Positions 38,703 to 55,439 of a stretch of 64,000 nt of DNA are shown here, one piece after another (the first letter of the stretch is position 1; every line of letters begins with the position of its first letter). The DNA comes from a virus, in IMG/VR virus record IMGVR_UViG_3300027983_000009, positions 1 through 64,000 of that record; one strand, written 5' to 3'. A model generated the notes under the pieces. It saw only the letters and a list, made by a program, of their open reading frames with translations, was not told the DNA's origin and searched no databases. The position numbers and the translations under genes are program-made.

Positions 38703-38730
38703 GCCTACTTGGGGGCTTCGTAGCCAAGCG
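38703..38730 (+). repeat. Cas12m-repeat-like pseudoknot motif (CTTGG/CCAAG stem variant)
   Basis: GCC TA CTTGGG GGC TTCGTA GCCAAG CG; operator GTTATGAATAAC at 38670-38681 upstream. Confidence 0.7.
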
Positions 38731-39257
38731 GAGGCACACATGGGTAGCCTGACACTGCATACACAACGGACAAAAACACAAAAGGAAGGTTAGAGTTAGA
38801 GTATGGCTATTAACTTGAAAAAGTTGGCTGAGGCGTTGAGCAATCTAAACCCGGCTGCCGCGGCAGTCCTTCGCAGAGCTACAGCGGATGCCCCCACGAC
38901 AGATGCAGCGGATGAGGAGTGCGAGGTTAAGCTTGTGCTTATCATGATGGCTATGCGGATTGCGGAGAAAGAGGGGTTGAACCCGTGATGGTTAACGTGC
39001 AGCCCGGGGCGGCTAATAACCACCCGGCCACCCCTGAATCCGCGTCACAGATAGTCCGGCACATGAAAGCCGGGGGTCGGTGTATGGTGCAGATGCTGCC
39101 GCGTCGTGATGCAACGATAACCTACCCCAGAGTGGTAGAGCAGGCGAGAATGGATAAAAATGGTGAGTGGTACTTTGGTGTGTCGCTCTGGGCGTTCTCG
39201 TGGTTTACGTTCCCCTCGGCGGGGTTGGTGTGGACGCTGAATTAGGGTAAGCCCCGG

Positions 39258-39412
39258 GTCGGTGACGGTACAGCATTTGTACGGGTGCGTAGCCCGTAGT
39301 TTTCAGAACAACCGTTGCCGCTGGGGTAGCACCCAGCGCCTACCAGCTGTACCTAAACGACGCTATTGGAGTGCGAAGAGCGTCAGGTTGATGATGTGCT
39401 GTACCGTCTGAC
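39258..39412 (+). ncRNA. Candidate structured RNA element
   Basis: 13-bp closing stem 39264-39276/39396-39408 enclosing four further helices. Confidence 0.3.
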
Positions 39413-39833
39413 AGAGAAAATCTGGAAGAAAGTTAAAATCGAGCTCAACATCCAAGACTGAGAGCGACGTGAGGAGAAATATTTCAAATGTCAGACACTG
39501 AGCCCGGGCAACCAAGTGTGGATCATACTAGTATGCTGAAGGACCGCAAAATGACTGAAAACCAGCCAGTCCTGGCAGCAGAGGCCCTCTCTACAGAGGC
39601 TCACATGGTTTCCATGCTGTTAAGCGTGGGCTGGGTAATACACCTGACGGACTACCCAGCATTATCCGTGAAGATGTTTAAGTGCGTAACAACAGGTAAT
39701 ACCACAGCAGTGGAGCAGCTGGAGGTAGAAGTGGACACAATTCTGGAGTTGCAGAGAGCGGGTAAGTTAAAGCGGCACAAACAGTTCAAATCACAGGGTG
39801 TAACAACAACAATTTTTACTGCAGGAGAGTAGA

Positions 39834-40841
39834 GTGTTTACAACAGACAGCAGGACGGAAAACTTCCTGACGCAGATGGGTGTGCAATACTCGTATCGCA
39901 ACGGATTGCGATTCCCGGAGGAGTTTGCACCGGGTTGGGATCAGGAGAACCTGGGAAGACCGGTGGCCGTCCGTGAGGACGCTGTGTTGGAGTATGCGGC
40001 GCTGATGGAGGGAGGCTCAGCCGCCCCAGCCACGATACTATGTGCGACACGTGATGGTTTTCGTGTGTTGGATGGGGTCCAGCGTCTATCTGCAGAGCTT
40101 CTGCAGGAGACTACCAGGATTTCTGCCTACGTTGTGGAGACGGACTCGGAGGACTCACTTGCGGCAATCCGGGTGCTGGCGAATGCGAGAATGCAGGGCC
40201 GTGCAGAGCCGGCTGAGTGGACTCGTCGACGAGCTGTCGAGGTGTTGGTAATCGCCAGAAAAATGAGTTACGCAGAGGTCGCCAAGATGGGCGGCTGGAA
40301 GACAGCAGACGTGAAGAGGATAGCGGAGGCTATCGAGCTCCAGAGCTGGATTCGAGATGTTGGAGGACCGGCGGATCTCCCAGATTTGCTGCTGGCGGAG
40401 CTGCGACCACACCTTGAGACTGGTAACCTCCTGGAGAAGGCAACACTGCCAATAACAGCCTTCCTGCAGACTATCCGGAAGGCGAAGCTGTCTGTTCAGG
40501 ACGCTGTACCATTTATTGACGAGTTCTTTGCCCCGCTACCGAAGGGGTCGAACCCGTATCAGGTGTACTCGAGCAGGCTTGATGATGTCCACAAAGAGAC
40601 AGAGATCTCAACCAGGCTAACCGGCCGGCAGAGAATGGAGATACCCAAAGACGTTGTCTTGTTAAGGGCGCTGAAAACTGTCGAGACAGTTGTTGACAGC
40701 ATCCTGACGCACGGCGAGCCGGTACCAAACGTGGACGAGTTTTTCCACATACTGAACAGGGTCACAAAAAAGCTGAAGGTGTTCTCTACGAACAAGAAAA
40801 ATCAGAAGGGGCAGCCAGCAGTAGACAGGACGAGCAGATGA
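39834..40841 (+). CDS. ParB/Srx-like N-terminal domain protein
   Basis: VLEYA..M..G..APATIL...RVLDGVQRLSA; HTH-like MSYAEVAKMGG. Confidence 0.55.
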   Translation: MFTTDSRTENFLTQMGVQYSYRNGLRFPEEFAPGWDQENLGRPVAVREDAVLEYAALMEGGSAAPATILCATRDGFRVLDGVQRLSAELLQETTRISAYVVETDSEDSLAAIRVLANARMQGRAEPAEWTRRRAVEVLVIARKMSYAEVAKMGGWKTADVKRIAEAIELQSWIRDVGGPADLPDLLLAELRPHLETGNLLEKATLPITAFLQTIRKAKLSVQDAVPFIDEFFAPLPKGSNPYQVYSSRLDDVHKETEISTRLTGRQRMEIPKDVVLLRALKTVETVVDSILTHGEPVPNVDEFFHILNRVTKKLKVFSTNKKNQKGQPAVDRTSR

Positions 40842-41572
40842 TTTCGCAGATAAAGCGGAGGTTTGAGGATTTATCCTCATACCTCAACAAGGACACAGAG
40901 GGTCTGAAAAGATTGAAGGCGCTTAAAGACGATGTGAATGTGTTGCGGAAGGCGTTAGCCGTCGCGGAAGATAGCACCAGACGAGCAGAGGAGACCAAGA
41001 ATGCTGCCAGGGCGAGGGCCGACAGTGCAGAGGCGGCTAACTACGCAGCACAGCTGGAGAGTATGCAGCTGCTGGTCAGGGTTGATGCTTTAACCAGAGA
41101 AGTGGCATCGCTAACACCTGCAGAGGTCATCGAGGAGGGTGATCACGCAGAGTCAGCTGGTGGTGATATGCAGGAACACGTTGTTAGGGCCGTATTGAAA
41201 AAACTCAGGAAGGAAGTACGCTGCTGCCCTAAAGCTATAATGCGGGAAAAAGAAACCGGCCGTACAAGATCGGCCGCTTCAACAACTCGTGCTGATACCT
41301 ATGTGCGAGAGGAGTTTGCGACAGGTTGGTCGCATAAAGACCTGTGGACGCTAGGTGCAGCAGTTGCAGTTATCGCAAGCATGAACGGTGGTGTGACAAT
41401 TGTGACGGATAAACTGTTCAAGCAGATGGCTGTTAAAGGAGACGAGGGGCCAGTGGAGCGACATATGTGGCAATGGTTCGCCCCGAAAAACGTTGAACAG
41501 TTCTCTGCTGCTTCTTCTAAGCTGTATGAGGCGGCGGATTCAGGACAACATCCAAGTCACGACTATATTTAG
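40838..41572 (+). CDS. Coiled-coil protein, paralog A
   Basis: MISQIKRRFE...KALKDDVNVLRKA shared with next ORF. Confidence 0.65.
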   Translation: MISQIKRRFEDLSSYLNKDTEGLKRLKALKDDVNVLRKALAVAEDSTRRAEETKNAARARADSAEAANYAAQLESMQLLVRVDALTREVASLTPAEVIEEGDHAESAGGDMQEHVVRAVLKKLRKEVRCCPKAIMREKETGRTRSAASTTRADTYVREEFATGWSHKDLWTLGAAVAVIASMNGGVTIVTDKLFKQMAVKGDEGPVERHMWQWFAPKNVEQFSAASSKLYEAADSGQHPSHDYI

Positions 41573-41581
41573 GGGCGCACG

Positions 41582-53747: not shown

Positions 53748-54023
53748 ATGCAACTAAGCACAATTAAGTACACCGACAAAGTAACCTTAACAGACCACGA
53801 AGTGACAGGTGCGGCAGCACGGAGGTGCCGCAGGCGATTCATGTTGAGTGTGAAAGAGGTTGCAGTAGCGGCTGGCTTATCACCCGTCTACCTCGCACAG
53901 CTGGAGGCGGGAGATATAGTCTGGACGCAGCCTGTGTTGGACGCCGTTACTAATGCGATCTACAGCCAACATAACAGCTCGCTCCCGCGTAAGCGCTTTG
54001 AACATCTATCCGGACAGTACTGA
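53748..54023 (+). CDS. XRE-family HTH protein
   Basis: RR.R....LSVKEVAVAAGLSPVYLAQLEAG. Confidence 0.7.
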   Translation: MQLSTIKYTDKVTLTDHEVTGAAARRCRRRFMLSVKEVAVAAGLSPVYLAQLEAGDIVWTQPVLDAVTNAIYSQHNSSLPRKRFEHLSGQY

Positions 54024-54058
54024 CCGCGGATTACATTCCACAAATAGGAGTACCAGAT

Positions 54059-54781
54059 ATGCGAGTAGATGTTAGTGAGCTCAGTGAGCAACCAAGCGGC
54101 GGCACGGCCGCACCACGTGTAGAGGTTATGCCCGTCTTCAGCGGCGAGTCGTTCATCAGAACGCTGTCCTATCCGGTGATTGTTGAGGCATGGAAGAAGA
54201 AAAACAGCGGTAGAGGTAAGCGAGCCTGGCTCGTGGAATTCACCGAGAAGGAGCGAGACCTCCTGTGTAAATGGCACGCCAGGTTCCACGACTGGCACTT
54301 GGTCTCCGGCACACCGGGTCGGGTTGTAATGAAATTGACAACGCTCGAGCTGCTGCAGCGAGCTGTTAACTTCTTTGCGGCTATTTGAATCGCACACCAG
54401 CAACCTCCTCCGTTATGCATAACGGAGGCTTCGTATCTGCGGACGGCCGCAGCATCACATTCCACAAATAGGAGACATAAATTGAAACCGTACACAGTGA
54501 TCGGGCATTATAAGGACACCGGGTTGTTGTATTGCAGCATAAACCTCCACGCCGAGACCCCGGATGCTGCCGCTGCGTTGGTGGCAGAGCTGTACCCCGA
54601 TGAGGACATTGCTATCAGCGCAGTGATTGCGGGGGAGCACGAGAGTGTGCTGGAGGGTGAATACCTGTTAGACACATCAACCATAAGATCGTGGGGTACA
54701 GACGATGAAGGAAACGGTCCCAGTGTTTCAGCTGTTGTGCGGGTGCCCGACAACAGCAACAACGAAGTACAGAGCGGGTAG
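54059..54781 (+). other. Two hypothetical CDS (54059-54388, 54482-54781) sharing a duplicated ACATTCCACAAATAGGAG leader
   Basis: RBS-preceded ORFs. Confidence 0.5.
54407..54443. promoter_or_regulatory. 22-bp perfect palindrome (operator family) fused to the 3' half of a pseudoknot repeat
   Basis: CCTCCGTTATGCATAACGGAGG then C TTCGTA TCTGCG GA. Confidence 0.55.
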
Positions 54782-54978
54782 CAGGTGCTATCTGGACTTT
54801 ATCTTCAGCGGACTTGTCCCAGCTAAAGTCCTGCGTGTGCTTGTATCCGGTCGCGGGTTCGTTAGCACAGAGGGTAGAGTCGAGGTTGAAGTCACAGAGT
54901 CCCGTGGTCCGTATAAAAAGGGTGAAGTTTCAAAGTAGGTCAGCTGATGCTTCTTTAATGTTCTTCAACCAGTTAAGT

Positions 54979-55006
54979 GCCTACGCAGGGGCGTCATATC
55001 TGCGTA
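54979..55006 (+). repeat. Pseudoknot repeat
   Basis: GCC TA CGCAGG GGC GTCATA TCTGCG TA. Confidence 0.7.
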
Positions 55007-55411
55007 TTGGAGCCGGCCAGCGTGGTCGTGCCGCCTAAGCACGTTATTCGTAGGCAGTATTCCACCAGTATCAACACAGCGTATGAATGGGAGAAAGACG
55101 ATGACAGAAAATAATCCAGGTGCGTGTGGCGGGGGTCAGTGCAGCCCGAAACGCGTACCGTACAAACCACCGCAAGCAACGGTTATTAAGCGGCACACAT
55201 TTTTCACAGCTGAAGAACTGGCGACGGAATTGGAAATGGATGCAGTCGAGATGCCGGGTAGGCAGCCCACCGTATTGTATCTGGCACAAGACGTACAGAG
55301 TGGTGTGGCTGGTGAGGCGGTTGTAGCGTGGGTTCTTTGCGACGCGGTTAAACTATTCGGAAGACGGTCCTAGTGTTTCAGCACTAAATGAGTGAGCCCG
55401 AGAAACGTAGT

Positions 55412-55439
55412 GCCCCCGCAGAGGCGTTATATCTGCGAA
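55412..55439 (+). repeat. Pseudoknot repeat directly before the RBS of ORF 55451-55663
   Basis: GCC CC CGCAGA GGC GTTATA TCTGCG AA. Confidence 0.7.

Follow-up and report, generated by a model that had tools for sequence, protein, structure and literature searches.

Scattered Cas12m-type repeat units between the genes of a virus contig that encodes Cas12m

Cas12m (type V-M), one of the small CRISPR effectors, is known to silence DNA by binding and takes its guides from a regular array; it is a descendant of TnpB and binds DNA without cutting it (PMC10442227, PMC11013384). In the scaffold described for MmCas12m2, C(-22..-17) are paired with G(-8..-3), G(-23) stands opposite A(-2), A(-24) is flipped out and the pseudoknot stacks on a stem (PMC10442227). 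The GoCas12m scaffold of ~30 nt is presented as a triplex plus a pseudoknot, with repeats that contain a stem I and a stem II (PMC11013384). Repeat units outside arrays have been described as well. Standalone repeat-like elements and mini-arrays, many of them placed just before the effector gene, are considered a source of cr-like RNAs with a regulatory effect on expression, and type V-M is touched on in passages of that report (Shmakov et al. 2023, PMC10120712). RNA anti-CRISPRs (Racrs) are solitary repeat units of viruses, some of them directly behind a promoter (Camara-Wilpert et al. 2023, PMC10651486). Here we describe a virus contig of 82,680 bp with a G+C content of 54% (IMG/VR record IMGVR_UViG_3300027983_000009); its first 64 kb (64,000 nt) are referred to as the window. 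The contig has kept a cas12m gene, and no regular CRISPR array, with three or more near-identical repeats evenly set apart by unique spacers of ~36 nt, was found in its 82.7 kb, which CheckV estimates to be 57% complete; regularly recurring 12-mers are confined to a cluster at 29.7-30.0 kb. The handle of the Cas12m guide RNA appears to have been multiplied and to have diverged under structural selection in front of many unrelated phage genes, and likewise in a second virus contig (G001).

The units and their likeness to the Cas12m repeat

The motif has the form SCC-N2-stem(6)-GGS-loop(6)-stem'(6) and is present in 25 copies, together with one degenerate copy, between 25.9 and 62.5 kb of the contig. 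It corresponds to the 3' 28 nt of the 36-nt Cas12m CRISPR repeat. A unit is named here either by the first base of stem 1 (e.g. 49699) or by the start of the 36-nt unit (49691), the 8-nt tag lying between the two. The foreign repeats used for comparison were taken from 35 loci examined around Cas12m relatives. Regular arrays with a period of ~72 nt adjoin the gene in 14 of these loci (L004, L005, L006, L007, L011, L012, L013, L019, L020, L021, L026, L027, L029 and L030), and 14 of 15 foreign 36-nt repeats have the layout 8-3-2-6-3-6-6-2, with the 8-nt tag first and AC last; the repeat of L021 has one extra loop base. All 25 window units fit this series without a gap, i.e. a tag of 8, stem I of 3, a linker of 2, stem II of 6, stem I' of 3, a loop of 6, stem II' of 6 and 2 further nt. 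In the 15 foreign repeats 99.3% of the cells are paired, with compensatory change at 9/9 pairs and in both helices. When a covariance model of stem 2 only (R1) was made from the foreign repeats alone, its 12 best matches in 83.7 kb were all window units. The E-values of such small models are rough: the best was 2.6e-4 (unit 53667-53702), four units fell below 0.01 and six of the 25 below 0.1, and at E ≤ 10 the model found 21 of the 25 copies among 40 matches.

The order of the elements is also that of the MmCas12m2 and GoCas12m scaffolds: 5' tag, 3-nt half, two linker nt, 6-nt half, partner of the first stem, loop, partner of the second stem. Most window units have a seventh Watson-Crick pair in place of the G.A contact of MmCas12m2, and their loop has 6 nt against 5 nt inferred from the MmCas12m2 numbering. 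The terminal AC, present in 15/15 foreign repeats, is missing in 24 of the 25 window units and kept in one (53675). Unlike the repeats of a Cas12m array, the window units are solitary, lie outside an array and differ from one another in their stem sequences.

The protein that would be expected to recognise such a handle is encoded on the same contig:

49810 to 51801, + strand: cas12m (663 aa, protein P0001); match to PDB 23vw_A, E = 3.1e-44

The alignment of P0001 with 23vw_A ('CRISPR-associated DNA-binding protein Cas12m') falls into two stretches, which together cover residues 208-626; P0001 also matches UnCas12m4a (E = 2.7e-15) and Cas12m2 (8hhl/8hio, E = 2.9e-14), whereas its match to Pfam PF07282 (E = 1.6e-4) stays below the family cut-off. 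Similarity to the solved Cas12m structures spans WED, REC, RuvC and zinc ribbon, and the C-terminal CxxC...CxxC zinc ribbon is kept. By pairwise alignment His342 takes the RuvC-I position, which is Asp in 23vw_A and in the G001 homologue; the position of the RuvC-II Glu is Pro530, with Asp531 adjoining, and Asp615 and Asp617 are kept. An H-D-D variant of the RuvC triad, which is canonically D-E-D, is named as a Cas12m class and reported for MmCas12m in PMC11013384. Metagenome homologues of P0001 are 35-50% identical.

Shared layout, helix covariation, the ranking by R1, the Cas12m match and the published scaffold structures together identify the motif as a Cas12m CRISPR RNA (crRNA) handle, and we consider it very probable that the motifs are Cas12m repeat units kept for their RNA fold.

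The number of copies is far above chance. When the whole contig was scanned for the structure (GCC/GGC or CCC/GGG, with 5/6 or more stem-2 pairs), the + strand yielded 20 matches and the - strand 7, where 100 Markov simulations averaged 1.2 per strand; some four of these 27 matches (30370, 73692, 27667 and 10308) look spurious. The direct-repeat family D15 supplied two further copies, 29841 and 29987, with 4/6 stem-2 pairs. Eight occurrences of a 19-nt degenerate core were counted at ≤3 mismatches, where 0.02 are expected. A model built from the 25 copies recovered the same 25, the degenerate copy at 52104-52136 (- strand) and a fragment at 54423, with no match outside 25.9-62.5 kb of the contig. 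Since most copies had been gathered by a rule that demands pairing, the search was redone with a pattern blind to stem 2. This returned 25 matches, three of which are reverse-strand echoes of the palindromic CCC...GGG; 20 of the other 22 sites have at least 5/6 stem-2 pairs and two have 4/6, where chance would give about 3% per site.

In the alignment of the 25 copies (A4), 92.9% of the cells are paired (stem I 100%, stem II 89.9%) compared with 70.9% in shuffled alignments, none of which (0/500) reached the observed value. The covariation score is 0.552, against 0.181 after shuffling and 0.02-0.15 with the partners slid by 1-3 columns. Both sides change at 7/10 pairs of A4. An earlier note on this DNA, made from its letters, had claimed compensatory covariation in both stems as a sign of selection for structure. 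For stem 2 the claim stands, with both-sided change at 6/7 pairs, including in the count a seventh pair (second linker base with the first base 3' of stem 2) that the note had not listed. For stem 1 the signal within the window is weaker: two pairs are invariant and the third has two states, of which CCC/GGG is limited to one subfamily and may therefore reflect a single event. The stem-2 pairs named in the note are all present as read at each site, the fixed spacing of 3-2-6-3-6-6 is held in 25/25 aligned copies, and GCC/GGC and CCC/GGG account for 18 and 6 of 24 distinct rows. Its coordinates mark the first base of stem 1 at 49699, 60012, 53675, 55412, 47372 and 51820, whereas for 30038 stem 1 begins 4 nt further downstream, at 30042. 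G-U tolerance had also been put forward as evidence for RNA. G.U cells do occur (13), but barely exceed A.C cells (8), and we rejected G-U pairing as decisive proof. Folding energy was likewise dropped as evidence: thermodynamic folding of eight units was ordinary (z from -1.85 to +0.69, no better than shuffles), with stem 2 as the minimum-energy fold in six of the eight. The proposed pseudoknot of interleaved stems is supported by the identical geometry of the Cas12m repeats, for which cryo-electron microscopy describes a pseudoknot (PMC10442227, PMC11013384). The view that the element is an RNA ligand of Cas12m and not a double-stranded DNA operator is supported as well, chiefly on grounds other than those first given; an operator is disfavoured because it leaves the stem-2 covariation unexplained. 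Selection on structure is supported by stem-2 pairing and covariation, both in A4 and in the stem-2-blind search, and by the unchanged cores of orthologous units in a related strain (see below).

These data bear on two simpler explanations. A phage promoter, terminator or other DNA signal, with a merely coincidental likeness to the Cas12m repeat, is extremely improbable. The loop often resembles a -10 box (GTAATA, GTTATA), and a minus-strand reading of the palindrome GCCTCTGCAGAGGC, with T-rich sequence after it, was picked up as terminator-like; a promoter, however, would give no reason to expect compensatory change in stem 2, and the likeness to the Cas12m repeat covers geometry, both helices and the loop consensus. 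A promoter scan found no + strand promoter at the units (11 found in total, 9.9 expected), a terminator scan stayed at chance level overall, and most units are without a T-run. Rfam gave 0 matches at gathering scores and ARAGORN 0 tRNAs, and with these results an identity as promoter, tRNA T-loop or hairpin-promoter was rejected. The other explanation is that the units are a decaying former array, or passive repeats at recombination hot spots, with no present RNA function. Several units do have one or two broken pairs (29841 and 29987 at 4/6), the canonical AC is lost and units coincide with mosaic junctions. Moreover, in the relatives L026 and L004, whose Cas12m is 47-50% identical, a normal array begins ~30 nt past the gene, where the window has a single unit. 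Neutral decay would not be expected, however, to leave stems that differ and yet stay paired, with 6/7 stem-2 pairs doubly changed and a seventh pair added, or orthologous cores that are unchanged between strains; nor are the units clustered at the old array site, being spread over 37 kb, and the same dispersal is seen in G001, which gave no match to two window proteins. We therefore give this explanation little credence.

Position of the units between the genes

The + strand of the contig holds nearly all long open reading frames (ORFs), and 21 of the 25 units lie on this gene strand. Most units begin 2-55 nt past the previous stop codon, in intergenic gaps. For 19 of the 21 + strand copies, the start of an ORF of at least 35 aa, preceded by a Shine-Dalgarno (SD) sequence, follows within 105 nt, and in 7-8 of them within 29 nt. 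The unit fills the intergenic gap, so that a ribosome-binding site and often the start codon occupy the position that a guide would have in a crRNA. The units are given below with their 36-nt coordinates; L002 and L003 are metagenome contigs that are 96-98% identical to the window at 46.8-54.0 kb.

25911 to 25946, + strand: unit directly 3' of a strong terminator-like hairpin (25874-25905); 35.8 bits with model R2
26226 to 26261, + strand: unit; SD-preceded ATG 18 nt past stem 2; R1 E = 7.9e-4
28782 to 28817, + strand: unit of the CCC/GGG class; ATG 18 nt past stem 2
29742 to 30069, + strand: tandem cluster of five CCC/GGG-class units (starts at 29742, 29833, 29898, 29979 and 30034), upstream of the gene at 30106-31251
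38695 to 38730, + strand: unit, followed by a 17-codon micro-ORF and then the gene start at 38803
43442 to 43477, - strand: unit in the 104-nt repeat family D16, in an intergenic gap; 41.8 bits
47364 to 47399, + strand: unit; its 3' end is a mosaic junction with L002/L003
48632 to 48667, + strand: unit; its 3' end is a mosaic junction; the 3' half of the L003 orthologue differs (7 differences)
49691 to 49726, + strand: unit 85 nt upstream of the cas12m start codon
51812 to 51847, + strand: unit starting 11 nt past the cas12m stop, the position of the first array repeat in relatives
52104 to 52136, - strand: degenerate unit; 22.5 bits, E = 0.0012
53425 to 53460, + strand: unit; ATG 17 nt past stem 2
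53667 to 53702, + strand: unit, the only copy ending in the canonical AC; L003 has a 764-nt two-gene cassette in its place
54971 to 55006, + strand: unit found by the structural scan and the copy-derived model
55404 to 55439, + strand: unit; SD GGGAGG and ATG within 15 nt past stem 2
55948 to 55983, + strand: unit of the CCC/GGG class; ATG 23 nt past stem 2
60004 to 60039 and 60044 to 60079, + strand: two units 40 nt apart, after a T-rich tract
61219 to 61254, - strand: D16 unit with a predicted sigma-70-like promoter, TTGACT-16-TACAGT (61283 to 61256)
61408 to 61443, + strand: unit; its flank is a ~80-nt duplicate of the sequence from 61129 onward, and TTG precedes the copy at 61129
62491 to 62526, - strand: unit with a predicted sigma-70-like promoter, TTGACT-16-TACAGT (62555 to 62528)

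A third reading at 60038-60073 (- strand) overlaps the + strand pair because of the palindrome GCCTCTGCAGAGGC. The units of the cluster 29742-30069 are unevenly spaced (91, 65, 81 and 55 nt) and unlike one another (families D13 and D15). Iterons of CTCACATATAC are interleaved with this cluster, so that its 'spacers' share iterons; with the form CTCACATATAC(T/G)CTCTCAC, about eight repeats lie in 29684-30000 and nowhere else in the contig, and they could be a phage promoter or operator set. Between the unit upstream of cas12m and the start codon a 12-bp hairpin (49739-49768) is found that lacks a following T-run; the sequence immediately 3' of this hairpin agrees with the flank of unit 53675 at 15/18 positions. 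At 61 kb the ~80-nt duplication of a gene 3' end (61125-61205, 61442-61520) is joined to a repeat unit, and the ORFs at 61356 and 61680 share the same leader and the same MKDxDYY N-terminus, which indicates recent local rearrangement.

What follows from these positions for transcription, binding, cleavage and any regulatory consequence is what we infer. In the reading that we prefer, if at somewhat less than an even chance, the units are Cas12m-binding cis-regulatory tags on phage transcripts, which serve for cutting between cistrons and for control of the downstream ribosome-binding site. All parts of the crRNA-scaffold fold are present in each unit: the 8-nt tag, a loop that is semi-conserved, and a 3-bp stem I that interleaves with a 6-7-bp stem II in a pseudoknot. 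Most units would be transcribed within + strand polycistronic phage mRNAs; for three, transcripts would arise from a minus-strand module that is repeated, two of its copies having a predicted promoter. The transcribed units would fold into the pseudoknot and be bound by the array-less Cas12m of the phage itself; cleavage by this protein 5' of the units is also probable, as in pre-crRNA. The main effect would be exerted in cis: transcripts would be cut by Cas12m between their cistrons, and the protein would keep hold of the downstream message at its 5' end or mask that end; the putative regulon would comprise ~15-20 genes, cas12m itself included. We prefer this reading because of the placement and strand of the units, the units before cas12m in relatives, and the clusters in which spacers are too short for guiding.

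Several observations weigh against it. Only the six units mentioned above reach E < 0.1 with the foreign-repeat model, and since the terminal AC is invariant in the canonical repeats and present in a single unit, its loss could impair recognition by Cas12m. An array may lie in the missing part of the contig, given its completeness of 57%. Units 25919, 60012 and 61416 follow a terminator-like hairpin or a T-rich tract, so that read-through into them is possibly low. The distance from unit to start codon ranges from 11 to ~100 nt, and hiding of the ribosome-binding site can therefore not apply to all units. Any tolerated insertion would also survive in intergenic gaps. Finally, the TTN pattern at junctions, described in the next section, points to DNA targeting, which cis-regulation does not need.

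The minus-strand units bear on a different possibility, namely that the units are decoys of the Racr type, repeat mimics that soak up Cas12m, either that of a host or the phage's own as a buffer. Viral solitary repeat units are often found just 3' of a promoter, and three V-A candidates inhibited Cas12a (PMC10651486). Here, the three minus-strand units (43469, 61246 and 62518) share the 104-nt repeat, and two of them stand right behind the predicted promoter, which in both cases stops 1 nt short of the 36-nt unit and, at 61283-61256, is 9 nt away from stem 1. The very-short-spacer clusters of G001 look like sponges, too. However, this phage carries an intact, conserved cas12m, whereas viral solitary units are described as typically without cas genes (PMC10651486), and most of the window units have no promoter and are embedded between genes. 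Furthermore, when the most frequent unit form was looked for in 185,579 species genomes, it turned up at three single sites in metagenome-assembled bacterial genomes and in no array. A decoy function thus appears distinctly improbable. Single Cas12m-type units were seen at L045, L046, L047, L080 and L093 (two Acidobacteriota and one Burkholderiales metagenome-assembled genomes, and other virus contigs), with no array within 100-300 nt around them.

Relatives, mosaic junctions and flanking sequences

Units upstream of cas12m are not peculiar to the window. In L026, which has a normal array and a Cas12m 47% identical to that of the window, two abutting units lie directly upstream of cas12m, with the GTG start 15 nt past stem 2; units upstream of the gene are also present in L005, L023 and L025, and L006 has two units ~700 nt upstream. 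The most extended case is G001, a 94-kb virus contig found via the motif, whose Cas12m is 27% identical to that of the window and has Asp and Glu at the RuvC-I and RuvC-II positions. Around its cas12m gene (L041, 80.5-86.5 kb) 18 units are packed, 8 upstream and 10 downstream. The first three downstream units form a small regular array and the rest have diverged with covarying stems, so that the units grade from a regular mini-array into diverged, solitary ones, with spacers down to 1-20 nt. Further single units are situated between the stop codon and the next ribosome-binding site of other genes. Spacers of 1-20 nt are too short for guides and fit protein-binding tags better. Two window proteins searched against G001 gave no match, and the scattered arrangement may therefore have arisen more than once. 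Scans of viral contigs with P0001, P0007 and the ORF at 56005-56526 yielded no further usable relatives, and a 14-base pattern gave mostly noise on viral contigs (89 matches, 18 with at least 5/6 pairs, 12 of these 18 from two arrays).

Comparison with L003 provides information on the flanks. Four orthologous units have 0 differences in the 26-nt core, with flanks that are 96-98% identical. In each of the four structural differences between the window and L003, one boundary falls within 3 nt of the 3' end of a unit:

Junction after unit 47372: 299-nt gene present in the window only
Junction at a replaced segment: the L003 version ends in a unit that is absent from the window
Junction after unit 48640: 309-nt gene present in the window only; the counterpart unit in L003 has a different 3' half
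Junction at unit 53675: 764-nt two-gene cassette in L003

Nine cases in which a unit flank also exists without a unit, five within-contig near-matches and four between-contig junctions, were compared. TTN precedes the unit-less copy in 4/9 (A1 TTG, A2 TTT, B2 TTA, B3 TTA), against a background of 20/378 (5.3%) before random near-matches (binomial P for at least 4/9 = 8e-4). In A1, B2 and B3 (61416 versus 61129, and the L003 units 1425 and 1653 versus the window) homology starts at guide position 1 with 0-1 mismatch per 30 nt. The flank of unit 47364-47399 matches 47541, which is preceded by TTT, at 16/18 positions. 5'-TTN-3' is the published protospacer-adjacent motif (PAM) of GoCas12m (PMC11013384); the present clade may have another. 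The set is small and was collected after the fact, and it serves here as a lead only. Elsewhere in the contig, sequences close to the flanks are not enriched overall (near-matches for 5/25 units versus 202/1500 random 18-mers, 13.5%); trans targets within the contig were rejected on this basis, and only the PAM pattern was kept.

The lead is compatible with units that make real guide RNAs from the adjacent flank, aimed at unit-less, TTN-flanked alleles or paralogues. Since the unit displaces the PAM, its RNA could not target its own locus. The effect would resemble homing or the action of a TnpB omega-RNA end: through binding of Cas12m a co-infecting relative might be silenced or stalled, or recombination provoked at the edge of the R-loop, and the neighbouring cassette would be spread or protected. 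The position of the four structural differences, the TTN excess, the start of homology at guide position 1, the agreement with the GoCas12m PAM and the TnpB ancestry and non-cutting DNA binding of Cas12m all speak for such guides. On the other side, five of the nine cases are without TTN, the flanks show no overall enrichment of targets, the short-spacer clusters of G001 and 60012/60052 cannot supply guides, no Cas1 or TnpA gene was found in the contig, and phage mosaic junctions tend toward gene boundaries anyway. We regard flank-derived guides as rather unlikely, yet as the main rival of the cis-regulatory tags. Similarly tentative, and on the unlikely side, is a combination in which a phage lineage has made a genome-wide system out of the array-less, DNA-binding Cas12m and the ~26 scattered handles, with a Cas12m RNA produced by every tagged gene for itself. 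Cassettes would be marked at their 5' end by the handle, with the flank as guide, so that the own locus is spared and TTN-flanked copies in relatives or paralogues are bound; this would amount to RNA-guided marker exclusion, homing or cassette exchange, TnpB-like without transposase or nuclease, in addition to cis-regulation of phage mRNAs.

The remainder of the genome offers little guidance on function. Phage-like genes recognised include those for a UvsX-like recombinase, ThyX, a RuvC-like resolvase, a MazG-like protein and several DNA methyltransferases, while most proteins of the contig have no match at all, and no similar DNA was present among 50,697 phage records. Pfam and PHROGs assigned almost nothing to the unit-tagged genes; the sole family match is a small helix-turn-helix protein (53748-54023, HTH_31, E = 1.1e-5). 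The ESM Atlas gave no lead for the gene at 30106-31251. The 1012-aa ORF at 31585-34623 consists largely of 12-nt (4-residue) periodic repeats and has a C-terminal match to DUF6745 (E = 4.7e-28). Five ~316-nt units stand in tandem at 35125-37350 (families D2, D7, D12 and D14); every one of them contains short-period repeats rich in Gly/Tyr/Asn together with a conserved segment of 70 nt. In-frame short tandem repeats with a 15-nt unit are found at the contig start (1-128) and at ~20 kb (20004-20103), and an acidic, Asp-rich in-frame repeat run at ~25.7 kb (25650-25826). Four or five predicted DNA methyltransferase genes are clustered at 69.4-75.1 kb of the contig (L001 6394-12124), followed by a MazG-like gene.

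Comparison with known systems

No such scattered, array-less arrangement was found in searches of openly available full texts; a 2026 preprint claiming the first phage Cas12m describes a normal array. Solitary, diverged units just upstream of ribosome-binding sites, with no array in the contig, look unreported, and they suggest that the phage uses Cas12m for something other than ordinary CRISPR defence. If the handles are bound by Cas12m, they would represent a natural case of a CRISPR effector in virus gene control or strain competition, and the ~25 natural stem variants would define the RNA needs of the protein, which would be useful for engineering a compact editor. The coincidence of handle ends, mosaic junctions and TTN also raises the question whether RNA-guided DNA binders shape phage genome mosaicism.

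The standalone repeat-like elements and mini-arrays of Shmakov et al. are similar in kind: as there, units occur outside arrays, and one unit in the window, as well as units in L026, L005, L023 and L025, stand upstream of the effector gene. The window differs from the elements described in PMC10120712 in having ~26 units over 37 kb and before many non-cas genes. Racrs share with the window units the viral origin, the solitary state and, for some, the place directly behind a promoter. As described in PMC10651486, they are not linked to cas genes, are few per genome and lie near acr genes, whereas cas12m is on the same contig here and most of the ~26 units are promoterless. A Racr is recognised by its own promoter, the lack of a cas link and a host with the cognate system; here a promoter-like site is present at two units and the contig carries cas12m.

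At the right ends of IS200/IS605 elements, the guide of the TnpB omega-RNA is the sequence that flanks the element, and the empty site carries the transposon-associated motif (TAM). The window units are similar to omega-RNAs, and to TldRs (nuclease-dead TnpB-like repressors), in that the boundary of scaffold and guide is a DNA rearrangement junction, the flank would be the guide and the empty site would have a TAM or PAM. Their scaffold is much shorter, however (~30 nt compared with ~150 nt for omega-RNA). Neither a left end nor a left-end hairpin of an IS200/IS605 element was identified, and TnpA (PF01797) gave no match in G000, G001 and G002, with a positive control in 6/14 known genomes. 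For the cis-regulatory role that we prefer, an analogy is provided by other phages. RegA and RegB of phage T4 control early mRNAs, and RNase III sites lie between the genes of T7. Although proteins and signals are unrelated, the logic would be alike: factors that the phage encodes or exploits bind or cut the RNA of many messages, at their ribosome-binding sites or in the gaps from one cistron to the next.

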